This document shows, in pieces, positions 3,033 to 33,065 of a DNA stretch of 64,000 nucleotides. The DNA is from Bacillota bacterium. Lineage in GTDB: Bacteria > Bacillota > Clostridia > Christensenellales > Pumilibacteraceae. The position numbers and the translations under genes were made by a program. Numbering within the stretch: the first letter of the stretch is position 1; each line of letters opens with the position of its first letter. The notes beneath the pieces are model-generated. The model did no database searches, was not told the origin of the DNA, and worked only from the letters and a program-made list of their open reading frames with translations. The stretch is from contig WRAF01000001.1 of assembly GCA_009780325.1 (NCBI GenBank), positions 125,048 through 189,047 on the forward strand, read 5' to 3'.

Positions 3033-4871
3033 ATGTCAAAAGTAATAGGAATTGATTTAGGAACAACAAATTCATGTGTCGCTGTTTTAGAGGGCGGTGA
3101 GCCTGTGGTTATACCAAATGCAGAGGGGGCGAGGACTACTCCGTCGGTTGTGGGATTTAATAAAGCGGGCGAAAGATTAATAGGGCAAACTGCAAAAAGA
3201 CAATCTGTGTCTAATGCAGATAGAACTGTCGCTTCTATCAAAACTCAAATGGGCAGTGACTATAAAGTAACGATTGATGGCAAAAAATATTCGCCTCAAG
3301 AGATTTCAGCGTTTGTTTTAGGAAAATTAAAGGCTGATGCAGAAAGCTATTTAGGGCAAAAGGTAACTAAAGCAGTAATCACAGTTCCTGCATATTTTTC
3401 TGACTCACAGCGTCAGGCTACTAAAGATGCAGGAAAAATTGCTGGTTTAGAGGTTTTAAGAATAATAAATGAGCCGACTGCGGCAGCGTTTGCATACGGA
3501 TTAAACAAAATAAATGAGGCAGAAGGTGCAAAAAAGACTACGGATCAAAAGATTTTAGTTTATGATTTAGGCGGCGGAACATTTGATGTGTCTATATTAG
3601 AGATAGGCACAGATGAGGGCGGCGCTACTTTTGAAGTATTAGCGACAAGAGGAAACAACAAGCTAGGTGGTGATGATTTTGATCATTTAATAATCAAACA
3701 TTTGATTGATGAGTTCAAAAAAGAAACAGGCATTGACCTTAATAAAGATAAATTAGCTCTTCAAAGACTTAAAGATGAGGCTGAAAAATGCAAGATTGAG
3801 CTGTCGGCTCAATTGAAGGCTACTGTAAATATTCCATTTATTAGTATGCAAGATGGTGCGCCTGTTCATATGAATATTGATGTGACTAGAGCAAAATTTG
3901 ATTCGTTGACAGAGAACTTGATTAAAGAGACGATTACTTTAGCGCAAGGTACTTTGACTGATGCTAAATTAAAATCTAATGATATTGCAAAAGTTATTTT
4001 AGTAGGTGGATCTACTAGAATTCCTGCGGTTGTTGATGCGGTTAGAAAAATGAGCGGCAAAGAACCATTTAAAGGTATCAACCCAGATGAATGTGTAGCT
4101 TTAGGGGCTGCGATTCAAGCGGGTATCTTAAATCAAGAGTTTGGTCAAAGCGTAATGGTATTAGATGTGACTCCATTGTCACTTGGAATCGAGACTTTAG
4201 GCGGAGTGTTTACAAAACTTGTAGATAGAAATACTACGATTCCTACAAAAAGGACAGAGGTCTTTTCTACAGCAGAGAATAATCAGCCTGGGGTAGATAT
4301 TCATGTATTGCAAGGTGAGCGTGCAATGGCTAATGATAATAAAACATTAGGGCGTTTTAAGCTTGAAGGAATCAGACCTGCGCCTAGGGGTGTTCCGCAA
4401 ATTGAGGTTACTTTTGATATTGATGAAAATGGTATCGTAAGCGTATCTGCAAAAGATAAAGATACAGGAAAAGAGAATAAAACTACTATTACGGCGTCAT
4501 CTAATTTGAGTGAAAAAGAGATTGATGAGGCAATTAAAAATGCAGAGAAATTTGCTGAAGAGGACAATAAATTGAAAGAGTTGATTTCTGCAAGGAATAA
4601 TGCAGAGATGGTGATTGAATCAGTAGATAAGATATTAGAGGAAAGTGGTGATAAATTTGATGAGTCTGAAAAAGAATCATTGGTCGGTGCAAAAGAGAAA
4701 GTTAAATTGGCTAAAGACGGTGATGATGTGGAAGCGATTAGGACAGCGGTTACAGAATTAGGAGATATAATGAATAGTCTTTCTCAAAAATTATACCAAG
4801 CGAGTGATTGCGGTGCGGGTGGTTGTGAGAGTGACGATAATACAGAGTCCGAGGTTAAGGTTGAGGAATAA
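3033..4871 (+). CDS. dnaK: molecular chaperone DnaK (Hsp70)
   Basis: 612 aa with Hsp70 signatures [27 protein letters not shown] and [12 protein letters not shown]. Confidence 0.97.
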
Positions 4872-11251: not shown

Positions 11252-11358
11252 CAGCTTTTTTATAGTATAGGAAAAAACGTCTGAGAGAAATGTATAAGCT
11301 AACTCAAAAAAGCCGAACCTCTAAGTGAGGGAAGTGGGCTAAAGCCCACCTTTTTTAT
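11252..11358 (+). repeat. terminator-associated repeat, copy Y (left arm of inverted pair)
   Basis: Nearly identical in reverse complement to 12953..13064. Contains GTGGGCTAAAGCCCAC plus a T-run. Confidence 0.85.
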
Positions 11359-11535
11359 AATACAAGAAATCACACAATATGCGGTGACTCTTTTTCTTTA
11401 AACACCCAACTTTTAACATTTTTCAACTATTTTTGTCGAACATATTTTTTTGTTTTTTAGAAGTGTTATTATAGATATTCATTAGTTTTACATACTAGAA
11501 AAATTGCTATAAAAATACAAGGAGAGAAAAATATT

Positions 11536-11943
11536 ATGGAAAGCGAATTAAAAAAAAGAGCATTATTAGCTAAACAGAGGATGAAGATGGGTTATTGGCA
11601 AGACATGATGAAAAAGCGTGAGGCTATGATAAATAAAGCAGGCAATAATAGTACTAATTTGCAAATAATTTCTCAAGTCCAGCGGGCAGATATTATAAGA
11701 GATGCCAATATAATTATCAATAATCCTCAAATAAATAGGGATGAAAGTCTTTATAATAAAGTTAAAGCTATTTTGGATGAAGATGAATTTGTGACAAATC
11801 CTATTGGCAAGTTGATTGAAAATGATATGCTGCTAAAGATGGACGATGCTGCAAAGCAAAAATACATTTTAGATTTATCTCAAAAATATAGAGAACTAAA
11901 AGAAAGATATTATAAAGAGAGAATAAAAGAAGGCAGTGTATAA
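11536..11943 (+). CDS. hypothetical protein
   Basis: 135 aa, soluble and charged; RBS AAGGAGAG. No family recognised. Confidence 0.55.
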   Translation: MESELKKRALLAKQRMKMGYWQDMMKKREAMINKAGNNSTNLQIISQVQRADIIRDANIIINNPQINRDESLYNKVKAILDEDEFVTNPIGKLIENDMLLKMDDAAKQKYILDLSQKYRELKERYYKERIKEGSV

Positions 11944-12004: not shown

Positions 12005-12835
12005 CTAACAGATAGGGAACTCTCTGTCTTGATTTTCTTCTGCTTTAATTTTTAATAGCTTTAGATGTTTATTATACTCATCTTTATTTTTATCTAACTC
12101 ATCGTCAAATTCATTATTAGATTCAACACAGACAGAATTTTTATTTTTTACAAATATACTAATCGTGAAAATTGATATAATGCAAAATGCTGCACCAACA
12201 AAAAAGAAAATTTCAGCTAGGGGTGTGCTTGTTATTATTGCGTTAATTCCTATAATAATAAATATAATGCCGATTAATAGCGGTAAAAAACTTAAAATGA
12301 TAGAAATCTTTGATTTAACGTGCGGTATATTGTTTATAATAGAGACAACCTTTTTAGCAGGTTTTTTATTGTTTATGTAATGCTGTTCATCTAATAATTT
12401 TCTATATGGTGTATAATGTTCTTGTATTAATCTTTTCTCATCATCACTAGCAACAATAAGCGCTTTTTCTAAATATTTATGATGACTTGTATTAAGAATA
12501 TCAGAATAATTTTTAGTGTCACACAAAATAAGTCCTAGATAACCACGATAATCACCAGGTTTTTCATCTATGGATTTATGAAAAACTAATTTTGCATTAC
12601 TCCAATCTTTTAGTTTAATATAAATCATGCCTTTTTCAATCAACTCGGCAAATTCAGTCTTTTCACTTTTGAAAATGTTTTTAGTTATGTATTGGGTTGT
12701 ATATGAATTATGATTATGGATGACTTTTTCAGTGATAAAAGCTGTTTGGCAATGATTGCAAATTCCTGTTTCTTTTGTGCTGTCTACTTGAATATTTGCA
12801 CCGCATTGAGTACAGATTGCTGGAATTAAGGACAT
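12005..12835 (-). CDS. zinc-ribbon / TPR-like / C-terminal TM protein
   Basis: N-terminal CTQCG...CNHC zinc ribbon, a TPR-like middle (WSNAKLVFHKSIDEKPGDYRGYLGLILC) and two C-terminal TM helices. RBS AAGGGAGAAAAAA. Confidence 0.6.
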   Translation of the reverse strand: MSLIPAICTQCGANIQVDSTKETGICNHCQTAFITEKVIHNHNSYTTQYITKNIFKSEKTEFAELIEKGMIYIKLKDWSNAKLVFHKSIDEKPGDYRGYLGLILCDTKNYSDILNTSHHKYLEKALIVASDDEKRLIQEHYTPYRKLLDEQHYINNKKPAKKVVSIINNIPHVKSKISIILSFLPLLIGIIFIIIGINAIITSTPLAEIFFFVGAAFCIISIFTISIFVKNKNSVCVESNNEFDDELDKNKDEYNKHLKLLKIKAEENQDREFPIC

Positions 12836-12952
12836 TTTTTTCTCCCTTTTGCTTGTATAGAATAAAAGTATCCTGCGGATACATGCGAGATTCTTTGCAT
12901 AGGTGCCATTTTTATTGATGCAAGCAGATAATTGTTTTTTCTTTAAGCATAT

Positions 12953-13064
12953 AAAAAAGGTGGACTAAAGCCCACTTCCCTCACTTAGAGGTTCGGCTTT
13001 TTTGAATTAGCTTATACATTTCTTTACAGACGACTGAAAGACGAAGTATTTTTCTTATACTATA
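12953..13064 (-). repeat. terminator-associated repeat, copy Z (right arm of inverted pair)
   Basis: Reverse complement of copy Y with a ~16-nt internal insertion. On the minus strand it begins at the U-run of the copy-B RNA terminator. Confidence 0.85.
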
Positions 13065-13202
13065 AAAAATACCATCTCAATTAAGAGATGGCATCCAAGC
13101 GGTTTTTCTCCTAATTGCTACGACACAACACTCAAAAACAGAGGGGAGAATTTGCCGAATGGCAGAATTCACCTTTGTTTTTGATATATGTGTTATGTCG
13201 CA
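13062..13202 (-). ncRNA. unclassified structured leader/sRNA, copy B
   Basis: Minus strand: P1 CGACAUAACAC/GUGUUGUGUCG, P2 CAAAAACAAAGG/CCUCUGUUUUUG, cap GCC-AUUC-GGC, CAAUUAGGAGA vs UCUCUUAAUUG, and terminator CCAUCUC-UUAAUU-GAGAUGG plus a U-run. Confidence 0.6.
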
Positions 13203-13207
13203 TAGTT

Positions 13208-13236
13208 AGGATAGCACATTGCCTATAATAAAGCAA
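13208..13236 (-). promoter_or_regulatory. extended -10 promoter of RNA copy B
   Basis: Minus strand TTGCTT-17-TATCCT preceded by TGC (TGn extended -10). The same arrangement is found at copy A. Confidence 0.5.
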
Positions 13237-26051: not shown

Positions 26052-27386
26052 TTAGCCTATATTTAGAAACTTATTCATATTTTCAATGTCGCTTTCTAAT
26101 ATAGAGCTTTTGACAGCCATTAATAATGATTCAATTTCATCAAAAGTAATAATCGGTTTTTGGTTTGCTATTTCTTTTCTGATTAATAGCATTTTTACTT
26201 TTTCACAAAACTCTGTAATATCTGCTCCGCTAAATCCGTTTAGGCGGTCTGCAATTTTTTCTATACTCACTTTATGGGCAAGGGGATATTTTTTTAGATT
26301 CTTATTCAAAATAAAAAGTCTGGCTTGTTCGTCAGGCGGCGGGATATAGATTTTTTCGCTAAATCTTCCTGGTCTAAGTAATGCACCATCCAAAGCCCAC
26401 GGACAATTTGTTGCAGCAATCACTAATAGCATATTTGTATTTTTTTCTACACCCTGCATTTGAGTCAATATCTCTTGAACTGTGTTAGAATACCCATTGT
26501 CAGCACTTCTTCTTTTTCCGATTGAGTCAAACTCATCAAAGAATATAATGGCCTTCTCACATTTTTTAGCATCAGAAAAAAGTTTCTTCACATTGTTTTC
26601 TGATTCTCCTATCCATTTTGATTCAATATCAGAGCATTTCACGCTAAAAAACTTTGCATCTAATTCGGTGGCTGCTGCTTGGGCAAACATAGTTTTTCCC
26701 GTGCCAGGAAGTCCAAACAATAAAATTCCACCGCCTACACTTTTGTCGTATTTATCATATAATTCTTTATGTTTTAAGGGCAATATAATCCTTTCTTCCA
26801 ATGCCTTTTTTGCCTCATCAAGTCCCGCAATATCTGATAATTTGGTGGTTGGAATTGCTGAGTCATTAGATTTTGTTGTTAGCTTAGTGATGTGTCTTTT
26901 GCTATGTATTTGCTTTGGTTTTTCAGTTGTATCATCAAATTCATTGTCATCATAGTCTATATCATCGTCATCTATATCTAGTTGTCTGTTTAACTCAATC
27001 AACTCTTGTTTAGTCAACCCTTTTGTTTCTATGCCTATTTCTTTAAACCAATCATGCATTTGCTCAATAGTATAATTATTTTCAAAATCATCATTAAAAA
27101 TGGCATAGATTAATTCGTCTTTTGTCATAGTGGAAAAATCTTTGATATTTCTTTCTGCGCACTCTTTTTGCAATTCACCCAAAGACCATTTGCTGAGTGG
27201 GATTATTCCGTCATCTTCGTCGGCATCTATCTTGCTGCTTTTTATCACAAACTCAATCAATGATATGCCGCCGATGAGTATGACACTGCCTGCAAGCCAT
27301 CCCCAATAGCCAAATATTAAGCTGCTGATATAGCCGACAAATGCTCCGACAGCAAAATTGCTGATATAAAAAGTGAGTGTCTTCAT
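26052..27386 (-). CDS. membrane-anchored classic-clade AAA+ ATPase with two HeH/SAP(Rho-N)-like modules
   Basis: Start reassigned to the ATG at 27386 (RBS GGGAGAA). N-terminal TM pair, then LGELQKECAERNIKDFSTMTKDELIYAI and KEIGIETKGLTKQELIEL modules and an acidic linker. Walker A GLPGTGKT, Walker B IIFFDEFD, and Arg fingers in LLRPGRF. Confidence 0.8.
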   Translation of the reverse strand: MKTLTFYISNFAVGAFVGYISSLIFGYWGWLAGSVILIGGISLIEFVIKSSKIDADEDDGIIPLSKWSLGELQKECAERNIKDFSTMTKDELIYAIFNDDFENNYTIEQMHDWFKEIGIETKGLTKQELIELNRQLDIDDDDIDYDDNEFDDTTEKPKQIHSKRHITKLTTKSNDSAIPTTKLSDIAGLDEAKKALEERIILPLKHKELYDKYDKSVGGGILLFGLPGTGKTMFAQAAATELDAKFFSVKCSDIESKWIGESENNVKKLFSDAKKCEKAIIFFDEFDSIGKRRSADNGYSNTVQEILTQMQGVEKNTNMLLVIAATNCPWALDGALLRPGRFSEKIYIPPPDEQARLFILNKNLKKYPLAHKVSIEKIADRLNGFSGADITEFCEKVKMLLIRKEIANQKPIITFDEIESLLMAVKSSILESDIENMNKFLNIG

Positions 27387-27404
27387 GTGTATTTCTCCCA
27401 TAAT

Positions 27405-27543
27405 GCAAAAAGTGCCATCCCAATTAAGAGATGGCACCCCAAGCGGTGCTCTCCTAATTGTCGCCAAACAACACTCAAAATAGAGGGGAGAAACAAGCCG
27501 AAGGGCAAATTTCACCTCTATTTTGATAATATGTTGTTTGGCA
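27405..27543 (-). ncRNA. unclassified structured leader/sRNA, copy A
   Basis: Minus strand: P1 CCAAACAACA/UGUUGUUUGG, P2 CAAAAUAGAGG/CCUCUAUUUUG, cap GCC-CUUC-GGC, CAAUUAGGAGA vs UCUCUUAAUUG, and terminator GUGCCAUC-loop-GAUGGCAC-UUUUU. The RBS and ATG at 27386 follow. Confidence 0.65.
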
Positions 27544-27548
27544 AGAAT

Positions 27549-27578
27549 AGGATAACATATTATTTGCAGAAAAAGCAA
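27549..27578 (-). promoter_or_regulatory. extended -10 promoter of RNA copy A
   Basis: Minus strand TTGCTT-18-TATCCT preceded by TGT. Confidence 0.5.
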
Positions 27579-29680: not shown

Positions 29681-29769
29681 AAAGCCATCGCCCCGACTTA
29701 TTGACCCACTTAAAAATAGGGCAGGGACAAGCGACTGGATATTGCCCCGACCTTCAACACGCTTAGACA
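29681..29769 (+). repeat. cassette-3' direct repeat DR1
   Basis: CTTATTGACCCACTTAAAAATAGGGCAGGGACAAGCGACTGGATATTGCCCCGACC... matches 31180..31279. Confidence 0.8.
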
Positions 29770-30140: not shown

Positions 30141-31151
30141 ATGAAGAAAAAACTAATTTCAATAATAATAGCCATTACCATGACGGCGGTGACAGCGACT
30201 ATGTTAACGGGCTGCAATATAGGGTTGCCTCCAGTAGACCCCGCTTTTAACAATTATCAATTTATGAGCATTGAAGCTGCTTACAGCAAAGGGTTTTTGG
30301 ACAGAGAAGATATAAAGCAAATTGCGTATCGTGGCGACGGCACAGTTATAGAGTTTACAGGAGAAGATGCAAATACTGTCCGAAATGGATGGTGCTGTTG
30401 CCTTGATCCTGAAGAATGGGTTAATATTAGAGTGATTGAATTTACTCCTAGCCGTATTAGAGAACCAATTTCATCCGAAGTGGCGGCAGCTGCAAGAAAT
30501 ATATCCGCCCGTAATATTCATAATCACACATGGAGACAAGACGGATATTCGCTTAGAGACATATATAATAATTTAATCGTTACTGGCAGCACTTATAATG
30601 GTGTACATTTAATTGTGGTCACGTCACATTTATGGGACTATCCAGCAGTTATAGTAGATACAGTGATAAGCGGAATTGTTTGGACTCATGGGTATCCGAC
30701 AGCGTCGGTTTTTGTTTTTATACCTACCGACGAAGCGACTGTACGACACAGCAGCGCTGATTTTAGAGTAGCGACAAGTGGTGATTCTTTGAGGCGAAAT
30801 AACGAGATTGTCATAACCATAGAAGTGACTTCCCATCAAGATTTTGAGATTGAGTTAACTTCAGACGCTTGGCGTGGAGCAGCAGGAGCTATTGGCTGGC
30901 GACTGTACAACAATGGCAATGTTGCTCCTCTTTTTCTTACTGCGACAGATGACTGGGCAGAGGTGCAGATAAAAAAGGGGGATACTTTCATAAGGGTTAT
31001 AAATTTATCGGCATCATATTTTGATGCTTGTTGCTGTGAACCTTCCAACTTGATAGGTAATTTTACGATTCAAGTTACTCTTTTTGGGAGAGAATTGGAG
31101 CCAGTTGGTTGGCTTTGTACAAGCTTAGCTTTAAATATTGACTTACGATAA
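30141..31151 (+). CDS. Cys-rich lipoprotein, unknown function
   Basis: Signal peptide with lipobox MLTGC and two CCC triplets (WCCCLDPEEW, FDACCCEPSN). The gene is visibly GC-richer than its surroundings. Confidence 0.65.
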   Translation: MKKKLISIIIAITMTAVTATMLTGCNIGLPPVDPAFNNYQFMSIEAAYSKGFLDREDIKQIAYRGDGTVIEFTGEDANTVRNGWCCCLDPEEWVNIRVIEFTPSRIREPISSEVAAAARNISARNIHNHTWRQDGYSLRDIYNNLIVTGSTYNGVHLIVVTSHLWDYPAVIVDTVISGIVWTHGYPTASVFVFIPTDEATVRHSSADFRVATSGDSLRRNNEIVITIEVTSHQDFEIELTSDAWRGAAGAIGWRLYNNGNVAPLFLTATDDWAEVQIKKGDTFIRVINLSASYFDACCCEPSNLIGNFTIQVTLFGRELEPVGWLCTSLALNIDLR

Positions 31152-31179: not shown

Positions 31180-31279
31180 AAAGCCGAACTCAATTTTATC
31201 CCAAACTTATTGACCAACTTAAAAATGGAGCAGGGACAAGTGATTGGATATTGACCCGACCTTTCAATCCACTAAGACA
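31180..31279 (+). repeat. cassette-3' direct repeat DR2
   Basis: See DR1. It begins ~30 nt after the stop codon of the preceding gene, just as DR1 does. Confidence 0.8.
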
Positions 31280-31973: not shown

Positions 31974-31979
31974 AACATA

Positions 31980-32135
31980 ATGAACATCAAAAAATTTTAC
32001 AGAGTAATGTCTACTATGTCGCATAGGTTTGCTGTTGAGATTGATGGCGAGGTTTTGGTGTGGCATTCTAAAAGGGGAGCAAAAGTGTATGGTAATAAGT
32101 ATAGTAATACATATCTGGCTCAGAATGAGGGGTGA
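31980..32135 (+). pseudogene. ghost copy of the rsgA 5' end
   Basis: 51-codon ORF MNIKKFYRVMSTMSHRFAVEIDGEVLVW..., compared with the real RsgA MENNKLYRVISTMSHRFLVDLGDEVLVC.... DNA similarity is visible over ~80 nt, after which the two diverge. Confidence 0.65.
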
Positions 32136-32168
32136 TTTATATCGATAGAAAAGGAAATGTTGCTGATT

Positions 32169-33065
32169 ATGGAAAACAATAAACTTTACAGAGTAATATC
32201 CACAATGTCACATCGTTTTTTAGTTGATTTAGGCGATGAGGTTTTGGTATGCAGTGCAAGATCAAGCAATAAAACTCAAGCCAATCATAGTGATGTGCAC
32301 AATAAATTCTCTAAAAAGGGCGGGACAATATTAGCAGGTGATTTTGTTAGAGTCGATATTATCAATAAAGTTATATTAAGTGTTGAAGATAGAAAAAATA
32401 AACTTATCCGTCCAGCTGTTTCAAATATTGACCAACTAATCATGGTAATATCATCTATCCCGCAGCCAGATTTTAAAATGCTTGATAAAATGATAATCAA
32501 TGCTATTTCAAAAAAAATCGTGCCAATCATATGTATTAATAAATCGGATATTAATAGTGATGACTTTCAAGTCCAAATCACTATGCAATATAAGGATATT
32601 AAAATAATTCAAATTTCGGCAGAAAAAAGTGATATAGATTCACTGAAAAAACTATTAAAAAATAAATTGTCTGTTTTATCAGGTCAATCGGCTGTGGGGA
32701 AGTCCACCATTATAAATGCTTTGACTAATTACGAGACAAGAAAAATCGGTGATTTGTCTAAAGCTATTCAGCGAGGCAAAAATACCACTACAAATACAGA
32801 GCTTTTTAAGATAAACGGCGGTCTTTTGGCAGATACTCCTGGCTTTAGTTTGACAGAGCTGTTTGATATTACTCATGGTGACTTAGATTTATATTACCCT
32901 GAATTTGAAAAACATAGACATTTATGCAAGTACCATCGCTGCAATCATATAAATGAGCCATCATGCAAAATCATTGAAAATAAAACCAAATACCTAAACC
33001 GATACGATAGATATATAGAGATATTTAATGAACTAAAAGAAAAACATGATAATAAGTATAAATAA
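32169..33065 (+). CDS. rsgA: ribosome small-subunit GTPase RsgA (CpgA/YloQ)
   Basis: Circularly permuted GTPase (INKSDI, GQSAVGKSTIINAL, DTPGF) with a C-terminal zinc knuckle CKYHRCNHINEPSC. Confidence 0.87.
   Translation: MENNKLYRVISTMSHRFLVDLGDEVLVCSARSSNKTQANHSDVHNKFSKKGGTILAGDFVRVDIINKVILSVEDRKNKLIRPAVSNIDQLIMVISSIPQPDFKMLDKMIINAISKKIVPIICINKSDINSDDFQVQITMQYKDIKIIQISAEKSDIDSLKKLLKNKLSVLSGQSAVGKSTIINALTNYETRKIGDLSKAIQRGKNTTTNTELFKINGGLLADTPGFSLTELFDITHGDLDLYYPEFEKHRHLCKYHRCNHINEPSCKIIENKTKYLNRYDRYIEIFNELKEKHDNKYK

Follow-up and report, generated by a model that had tools for sequence, protein, structure and literature searches.

A candidate family of 5′ leader RNAs with a predicted terminator/antiterminator switch, found upstream of AAA+ ATPase and envelope protein genes in uncultured Firmicutes

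Two copies of a structured RNA, here called copies A and B, are encoded on the minus strand of the window (the whole stretch of 64,000 nt that was analyzed), and we consider it likely that they represent a family of cis-acting 5′ leader RNAs that has not been described before and that subjects the downstream genes to conditional intrinsic termination. The window is chromosomal DNA from a MAG of an uncultured Firmicutes/Bacillota organism and includes PcrA, LigA, Fmt, RsmB and RlmN (locus tags FWE03_*). The family consists of seven distinct sequences, copies A and B and five homologues from metagenome contigs, all from a narrow group of uncultured organisms, and these score 77–152 bits with the covariance model. 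We read the family as a riboswitch or a factor-dependent antiterminator, which would be a new family using a known kind of mechanism.

For copy B, all the strings that had been listed in the sequence-only reading (promoter, two stems, cap, conserved strings and terminator) were found by direct reading on the minus strand of the window at 13062-13236. The promoter (13208..13236, minus strand) was read from the sequence as a -35 box TTGCTT (13236-13231), a 17-nt spacer and an extended -10 box TGC-TATCCT (13216-13208), and the predicted hairpin starts approximately 7 nt past the -10 box. Minimum-free-energy folding and consensus folding, with pair counts in seven homologues, place a P1-P2-P3 hairpin at 13120..13201 (minus strand). 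It comprises the 12-bp stem P1 (GCGACAUAACAC, 13201-13190, with GUGUUGUGUCGU, 13131-13120), an AU-rich internal loop on the 5′ side that separates P1 from P2, and the 12-bp stem P2 (CAAAAACAAAGG, 13183-13172, with CCUCUGUUUUUG, 13144-13133), which contains one A.C mismatch. At the P2/P3 junction a single bulged U faces a (C)UCC bulge (13148-13145), and the hairpin is completed by the 5-bp stem P3 (GAAUU/AAUUC) and the cap GCC-AUUC-GGC (13163-13154).

Two nucleotides 3′ of P1 lies the linker CAAUUAGGAGA (13107..13117, minus strand), which contains the Shine-Dalgarno-like AGGAG and forms the 5′ strand of the proposed antiterminator. The linker is separated from the terminator by an 18-nt stretch with CCGCUUGG. 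The 3′ strand of the antiterminator, UCUCUUAAUUG (13078..13088, minus strand), is at the same time the end of the terminator 5′ arm and the terminator loop. The intrinsic terminator itself (13064..13096, minus strand) reads GGAUGCCAUCUC-UUAAUU-GAGAUGGUAUUU, with the stem-loop at 13096-13067, a stem of 12 bp and a U6 run ending at 13064. The fold of the complete copy B RNA has a predicted free energy of -55.7 kcal/mol, compared to -26.5 ± 3.4 kcal/mol for shuffled sequences (z = -8.5), and none of 200 shuffles folded as well.

Copy A (27405..27578, minus strand) has the promoter TTGCTT (27578-27573), an 18-nt spacer and TGT-TATCCT (27557-27549), followed by the RNA at 27545-27405; its linker is found at 27460-27450 and the antiterminator partner at 27431-27421 (both minus strand). 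The copy A fold also beats those of shuffled sequences (z = -8.5, 0/200 as good). A repeat search of the window identified the two copies as repeat family D1, which aligns without gaps over 146 nt at 71% identity (13046-13191 and 27389-27534). When the covariance model was run on the whole window with filters off, only copies A and B were recovered (148.6 and 133.4 bits, E ~1e-39 and ~1e-35, respectively). The plus strand of the window scored at most 27 bits, and the G.U pairs, the promoter and the U-run are compatible with the minus strand only.

Copy B is a true paralogue of copy A with compensatory changes, as was proposed on the basis of the sequence. The P1 and P2 stems of the two copies differ at many positions and pairing is kept. 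In the alignment of the two loci the similarity spans the -35 box to the U-run and extends no further, and a BLAST search of the flanks of both copies revealed nothing else that is common to the two loci. As the similarity ends at the promoter and the terminator and the flanks are unrelated, the copies are not a piece of a longer repeat. The possibility that the similarity reflects a larger mobile repeat, which had been raised as an objection to a functional RNA, fails on the unrelated flanks and on a BLAST search of plasmid and phage collections, which gave no match to the leader.

The first homologues were found via contigs that encode the closest orthologues of the AAA+ ATPase gene behind copy A. 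For the orthologues P0002 (77% identity) and P0004 (69%) the RNA is located in a 310–350-nt gap 5′ of the AAA+ gene, and in loci L041 and L043 the arrangement rlmN / leader-AAA / rsmB-fmt-def-priA is the same as in the window. A metagenome scan with the pattern CAATTAGGAG..CCG..CTCTTAATTG returned six loci and added two new distinct copies. In L052 (identical to L050) the leader is followed by a 128-aa protein and then a membrane protein of 264 aa that carries a zinc ribbon at its C terminus, and in L053 (identical to L054) it lies 5′ of a lipoprotein (436 aa) that contains a Big_2 Ig-like domain. A clearly diverged leader is present at L056:2761-2894 (77 bits, E ~1e-19), at the locus of a more distant AAA+ orthologue, P0008 (55% identity, 566 aa). 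The leader is therefore found directly 5′ of AAA+ orthologues in four of the seven members (copy A, L041, L043, L056).

All seven members carry a sigma-A-type promoter that ends 6–10 nt before P1, with a TGn-extended -10 box in six of them and TTGACA-17-TATACT in L056. A same-strand ORF with a ribosome-binding site (RBS) starts 15–110 nt past the U-run in six of the seven members, and no intervening promoter is evident. In L041, L052 and L053, conservation includes both the leader and the RBS region past the terminator, so that the two resemble one cassette.

The leader was absent 5′ of the AAA+ paralogues P0021, P0012, P0010, P0041, P0025, P0101, P0023 and P0062, whose contexts include the neighbors HSP20/HtpG, PycTM and CD-NTase/Cap15. 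The JGI sample 3300002119, which carries one such leaderless paralogue, is referred to in a publication about the microbiota of the termite gut (PMC6841923). A genome-collection scan with the pattern GAGTGTTG..TTAGGAG..CCGCTTGG gave one chance match, in a Wenzhouxiangella MAG; the genome from which the window derives is outside this collection, and the scan is uninformative because its pattern strings are common to A and B and not conserved across the wider family. The other JGI sample series are presumably termite-gut metagenomes as well. Scans of viral contigs with three patterns returned 0, 39 and 77 matches, all by chance (located in coding sequence, or without a score with model R2), and the 77 viral contigs that contain both invariant strings and are left unscored by model R2 provide a negative control for the model.

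Using a structure-naive MAFFT alignment of six sequences, RNAalifold predicted P1, P2, P3/cap and the terminator, with 17 pairs changed on both sides. In the model-guided alignment of all seven sequences (A6), 96.1% of the 309 cells are standard pairs and 24 of the 45 pairs are compensatory, values that were reached by none of 500 shuffles. When the 3′ partners were slid by 1–3 columns in A6, pairing dropped to 45–52% and the number of compensatory pairs to 2–6. The compensatory pairs over the seven sequences are distributed over P1 (8/12), P2 (6/9), P3/cap (4/11) and the terminator (6/13). As A6 was fitted to the covariance model it leans towards that structure, and the MAFFT-based result serves as an independent check. 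Joint folding, which had been suggested as a check for the two copies, yields with the homologues included a conserved fold with compensatory changes, and this fold is also conserved in other genomes.

In most members P1 and P2 are about equally long (9–13 bp and 8–13 bp, respectively), and the complete P1-P2-P3 hairpin measures 80–85 nt. Of the unpaired features of this hairpin, only the U/(C)UCC bulge, which is closed by GG/CC, is invariant. The apical loops of the family are tetraloops, NUUC/AAUC in the first hairpin and GYUU/UCUU in the antiterminator. For the junction strings that had been described as conserved between the two copies, the comparison gives a mixed outcome: GGU, CUCCCC, UAGGAG, YUUGG and CUCUUA are invariant, but the remainder varies once the five homologues are added.

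The linker CAAUUAGGAGA is complementary to UCUCUUAAUUG over 11 bp, with one G.U pair. As UCUCUUAAUUG consists of the last four bases of the terminator 5′ arm plus the loop, the antiterminator and the terminator are mutually exclusive. In the alignment the pairing between the linker and its partner is kept in 94.7% of cells, compared to 30–55% when the partner is slid by 1–3 columns. The linker is identical in six of the seven members. In the remaining one, L056, both antiterminator strands are changed (to CA-UAGGAGA and UCUCUUAGGUG), and seven contiguous pairs as well as CA/UG remain. The antiterminator helix is without covariation because its sequence is invariant, and its support is conserved complementarity alone. 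That both strands are invariant while P1, P2 and the terminator stem vary freely argues that more than one constraint acts on them.

When the transcripts were cut before the terminator 3′ arm, RNAfold predicted the P1-P3 hairpin together with the antiterminator for all seven members (-10.6 to -20.6 kcal/mol), and in many cases a CC-GYUU-GG mini-stem lengthened the antiterminator hairpin. By itself, the terminator has a predicted energy of -14.1 to -22.5 kcal/mol and is favored in six of the seven full-length folds, with the antiterminator favored in L053. The terminator/antiterminator pair that had been presupposed for these RNAs is thus present, both as conserved complementarity and in the folds of shortened transcripts. 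The parts that define an attenuator with an intrinsic terminator were all found, namely a promoter, a leader terminator before an ORF, and a conserved alternative pairing that excludes the terminator. An antiterminator that is predicted to form first and to be a few kcal/mol weaker than the terminator has the typical look of a regulated attenuator.

In the mechanism that we propose, each unit would be transcribed from its own sigma-A-type promoter, with the start just before P1. The 80–85-nt P1-P2-P3 hairpin would fold first, after which the linker CAAUUAGGAG(A) would pair with the emerging UCUCUUAAUUG to give an antiterminator hairpin of about 40 nt, with the CC-GYUU-GG mini-stem in its loop. 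Once the terminator 3′ arm has been made, the somewhat more stable terminator could displace the antiterminator, and the outcome would be set by an effector, which may be a small ligand, an ion or an RNA-binding factor.

As the P1-P3 hairpin does not overlap with the antiterminator, it must act by tertiary contacts or within a binding site, and that it communicates with the switch by a pseudoknot or by docking is a conjecture. The bulge has only two conserved candidate partners, both of them G-rich: GGAG(A) in the linker and YUUGGR on one side of the antiterminator loop. In predictions for the individual members, the duplex of bulge and linker has an energy of -6.0 to -6.8 kcal/mol in all seven, and that of bulge and loop ranges from -2.7 to -13 kcal/mol. 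We prefer a reading in which the invariant (C)UCC bulge would compete for the GGAG(A) of the linker, or dock on the antiterminator loop. Capture of the linker by the bulge would then act as an anti-antiterminator that favors termination, and the effector would shift the ratio of termination to read-through. The reverse polarity, in which the hairpin would dock on the antiterminator and stabilize it, is equally allowed. Which way the switch operates, what the bulge does and what kind of signal is sensed are all features that we infer. More speculatively, the asymmetric P1/P2 loop might fold the hairpin back and set the bulge beside the base of P1, where the linker emerges. A contact between bulge and linker would require a sharp bend at the P1/P2 internal loop.

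Comparison with the 4227 covariance models of Rfam 15, among them those for known riboswitches, T-box, PyrR, ANTAR targets and ribosomal leaders, identified no known family in the whole window at gathering thresholds. In E-value mode, copy B, copy A and L056 reached at best 13–26 bits, compared to gathering scores of 36–442, and these matches were mostly to miRNA-precursor hairpins and unrelated sRNAs. Searching the literature for the invariant strings returned nothing relevant. In its general design the family resembles the transcriptional riboswitches of Firmicutes, in that there is a promoter of its own and a structured 5′ leader whose helices covary and in which a few unpaired nucleotides are invariant. 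A mutually exclusive antiterminator and intrinsic terminator right before the RBS, and one leader that is reused before different genes, are further points in common. It differs from riboswitches in that the putative sensor is a simple extended hairpin and not a multi-helix junction, and in that P1 does not overlap with the antiterminator, so that the usual competition between these two is absent; moreover, the functions of the genes (AAA+ ATPase, envelope proteins) do not suggest a metabolite.

The RAT hairpins recognized by BglG, SacY and LicT are similar in having a sequence-conserved antiterminator with internal loops, which shares sequence with the 5′ arm of a terminator of higher stability. 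Their requirement of a bound factor for read-through fits the invariant 40-nt antiterminator and the predicted default termination of the leader family. The family apparently lacks a RAT consensus. No PRD/CAT-domain regulator or PTS genes were found among the neighboring proteins examined, and the family has a conserved 85-nt upstream hairpin that is lacking in RAT systems. The targets of the ANTAR proteins EutV, AmiR and NasR likewise combine one stem-loop with a neighboring second one that competes with a terminator, and the similarity of the two caps in the leader (GCC-NUUC-GGC and CC-GYUU-GG) would fit a factor that binds as a dimer. The stems of ANTAR targets are short and their hexaloops carry conserved A1 and G4, whereas the leader family has tetraloops and a first hairpin of 80–85 nt. 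With these tetraloops and long first hairpin, and as no ANTAR-related Rfam family scored, we do not assign the leader to this class.

T-box leaders share with the family a long first stem that is followed by an antiterminator. We also take the AAUUAGG-type string in the 5′ strand of the leader antiterminator, with ACCGC and UGG nearby, to resemble T-box sequence. A T-box identity was nevertheless rejected, as there was no covariance-model match at E ≤ 10 and no specifier loop or 5′-strand bulge in the folds. In addition, the family lacks the distal loops of stem I as well as stems II, IIA/B and III, its UGG is located in the apical region and not in a 7-nt 5′-strand bulge (and is absent in L043), and its downstream genes are unrelated to amino-acid metabolism.

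The terminated transcript of ~140 nt could instead be a trans-acting sRNA that pairs through CUCCCC with G-rich ribosome-binding sites in the manner of RsaE/RoxS. Copy B in particular would then act as an sRNA gene on its own, or as a decoy for the factor that controls copy A, and the genes downstream would be there by coincidence. This is a reading to which we give a low probability, and it is most plausible for copy B among the members, as this copy has its own promoter and a strong terminator and no ORF directly 3′. The invariance of the C-rich bulge is also in its favor, as is a weak, sub-threshold resemblance to RsaE, but the RsaE match (RF01820, 21.7 bits vs. a gathering score of 79) is at chance level, and we rejected an RsaE/RoxS-type sRNA since the C-rich motif is a bulge in a leader followed by ORFs. 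Moreover, six of the seven members precede an ORF with an RBS and without an evident promoter, copy A leaves no room for one, the leader and the post-terminator RBS region are co-conserved in L041, L052 and L053, and the conserved antiterminator complementarity would have no role in a pure sRNA.

Termination could also respond to the ribosome, with UAGGAG as a real Shine-Dalgarno sequence for a UUG start codon. A loaded ribosome would then cover the terminator 5′ arm or block the antiterminator, so that translation capacity sets termination. UAGGAG is indeed followed by UUG at 8–9 nt in six of the seven members, and the CUCC of the bulge is anti-SD-like and could mask UAGGAG, but L043 has no UUG, and the putative peptides (5–34 aa) are conserved in neither length, stop nor sequence beyond what the terminator stem imposes. 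In Firmicutes, tight coupling of transcription and translation is furthermore thought to be weak. With stops that are not conserved and a member that lacks the start codon, we consider a leader-peptide attenuator improbable. It is still harder to maintain that the conserved stretch is not an RNA element at all and represents an N-terminal coding extension of the AAA+ protein (a 508-aa ORF that starts with a TTG at 27578) or a DNA repeat, whether dispersed or mobile. From 27578 into the AAA+ gene the frame is indeed open, and one public annotation, P0122, corresponds to the 508-aa product, but the NCBI annotation gives the 444-aa form, the copies B, L052 and L053 are out of frame with any long ORF, the substitutions are compensatory in helices and not synonymous, and a promoter and a terminator would lie within the supposed coding region. 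A mobile repeat is contradicted by the limit of ~175 nt, without terminal repeats, a transposase or a plasmid or phage match. Both forms of this explanation, to which we assign a negligible probability, are excluded by the compensatory changes, by the promoter and terminator within the stretch and by the homologues that are out of frame.

Copy A is located between the divergent rlmN and the gene for a membrane AAA+ ATPase of 444 aa (26052..27386, minus strand), which has N-terminal TM segments, a Rho_N/SAP-like domain and a classical-clade AAA domain. A PADLOC match of this protein to IetA/TRIP13 reflects the generic AAA domain only, and this identity was rejected. The RBS of the AAA+ gene, GGGAGA, begins approximately 10 nt past the U-run of copy A. 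As this leaves no room for a promoter between the U-run and the RBS, the AAA+ gene depends on read-through of the terminator.

The sequence-only reading had suggested that the AAA+ ATPase and a zinc-ribbon membrane protein (12005..12835) form a small regulon under one signal. A small membrane/envelope regulon finds indirect support in the leaders before AAA+ orthologues at three further loci, in the zinc-ribbon unit of L052 and in the lipoprotein of L053, but the link to 12005..12835 does not. Whether the family is a new class of riboswitch, in which a hairpin aptamer (the U/CUCC bulge with the antiterminator) would sense a small molecule, an ion or a second messenger and switch on an envelope regulon headed by the AAA+ ATPase, with copy B bringing element Z, and perhaps the zinc-ribbon protein as well, under this signal, we regard as a tentative proposal, with the odds rather against it.

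If the switch is real, it would constitute an unrecognized regulatory signal in poorly known, uncultured gut Firmicutes and would join in one regulon the AAA+ ATPase with its conserved position between rlmN and rsmB, zinc-ribbon proteins of the membrane and an Ig-like lipoprotein of the cell surface. The identity of the effector would give the first functional handle on these proteins. With seven distinct sequences and no cultured host, the family is a modest addition to the orphan leader RNAs, unless its ligand is new. It also allows a correction of annotation, as the one public call of a 508-aa ORF runs through the leader.

Copy B is an intact member of the family that is followed directly 3′ by element Z and not by a coding gene, and no RBS is found after its U-run. 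The zinc-ribbon/TPR/TM protein gene (12005..12835, minus strand; RBS and ATG at 12835), a possible target of copy B, is ~225 nt away, and a third hairpin with a U-run (12882-12868) is found between Z and this gene. The path from copy B to the zinc-ribbon gene contains three terminator-like structures. A sigma-70-like promoter was looked for on the minus strand from Z to the zinc-ribbon gene and not found, and read-through from copy B or Z is therefore possible. The zinc-ribbon protein has no close orthologue (best 36–39% identity over ~55%), and P0127, its best homologue with a readable context, has no leader 5′. Furthermore, no homology was detected between the zinc-ribbon proteins of the window and of L052, nor between the 135-aa protein of the window and the 128-aa protein of L052. 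With Z and the third hairpin in between, a leaderless homologue and no homology to L052, the proposed link between copy B and 12005..12835 is not supported in the form in which it was put forward; control of the zinc-ribbon gene by copy B is possible, judging from the arrangement of the locus.

The copy of repeat Z that follows copy B (copy 2; 12950..13069, minus strand) has two hairpins, its own terminator (12975-12960, with U6) and a possible -10 box. Z starts in the T-tract of a preceding terminator, with TTTTTTATAGTATA(A/G)GAAAAA, and contains CUAAYUCAAAAAAG as a single-stranded string, as well as a small hairpin and a terminator of its own. The second Z copy in the window is inverted (11256-11359) and 95% identical over 74 nt. 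A homologue of Z in Ga0123355_10000299 (L051:8728-8630), at a distance of 6 kb from the leader, retains both linear motifs, and the sequences of its two hairpins are entirely different and still paired. As Z occurs elsewhere in the window and away from the leader in L051, we treat it as an independent element and have left it out of the leader. Z is probably a small RNA gene, and a riboswitch-like leader that controls the small RNA Z would be an equally good reading of the copy B locus.

The segment that separates the start codon from the leader terminator, AAAAGUGU(A/U)(G)CAAAGGAGAAAAA-AUG, is kept before three unrelated genes at the metagenome loci L041 (positions 3958-4000; upstream of an orthologue of the AAA ATPase), L052 (2051-2088, minus strand; upstream of a 128-aa protein and a membrane zinc-ribbon protein) and L053 (3851-3889, minus strand; upstream of an Ig-like lipoprotein). 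Because of this conservation, the duplicated unit seems, as judged from sequence, to be a complete cassette of promoter, leader, terminator and RBS. The conserved string is similar to the P1-3'/linker segment of the leader itself (GUGU.GCAA...AGGAGA).

Upstream of the AAA gene, its frame remains open across the entire leader (window 27387-27578, minus strand), as far as a TTG at 27578, and one public gene call (P0122, JGI/IMG) takes the leader in as coding sequence. This call of 508 aa, compared to 444 aa in the NCBI annotation of the AAA protein, is probably an annotation artefact that masks the leader RNA.

Repeat Z, an element of approximately 100 nt, is present in the window at 11256-11359 (plus strand) and 12950-13069 (minus strand). 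The two copies are inverted to each other, with 95% identity across 74 nt, and flank the convergent genes 11536..11943 and 12835..12005, one on each side. Each copy starts at its 5' end inside the T-tract of a terminator, with TTTTTTATAGTATARGAAAAA, followed by CUAAYUCAAAAAAG, a small hairpin and a terminator of its own. A homologue in another genome (L051, 8630-8728, minus strand) retains the linear motifs, and both of its hairpins covary. No family matching repeat Z was found in Rfam, and the element has the appearance of a small RNA gene not described before.

Leaderless paralogues of the Rho_N-AAA ATPase are found in stress or defence neighbourhoods, adjoining HSP20 and HtpG (L057), a PycTM protein (L059), SIR2/DUF87 (L060), or a CD-NTase and a Cap15-like effector (L061/L062, the latter pair at L061). 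These neighbourhoods hint that the family possibly serves in stress or anti-phage settings. At two otherwise different loci, a gene for an HTH_3 and pentapeptide-repeat protein lies downstream of a Rho_N-AAA ATPase gene, either as the next gene (L056, 4940-5890) or at a distance of approximately 3 kb with other genes intervening (L046, 8497-9156).

The window also contains two 64-nt direct repeats (29691-29754 and 31200-31263, plus strand; 88% identity, 1509 nt apart), which bracket ORF 30141..31151. The copies of an 86-nt direct repeat (31977-32062 and 32166-32251, plus strand; 73% identity, 189 nt apart) are placed at the starts of neighbouring ORFs, which suggests that these ORFs are small genes duplicated in tandem.
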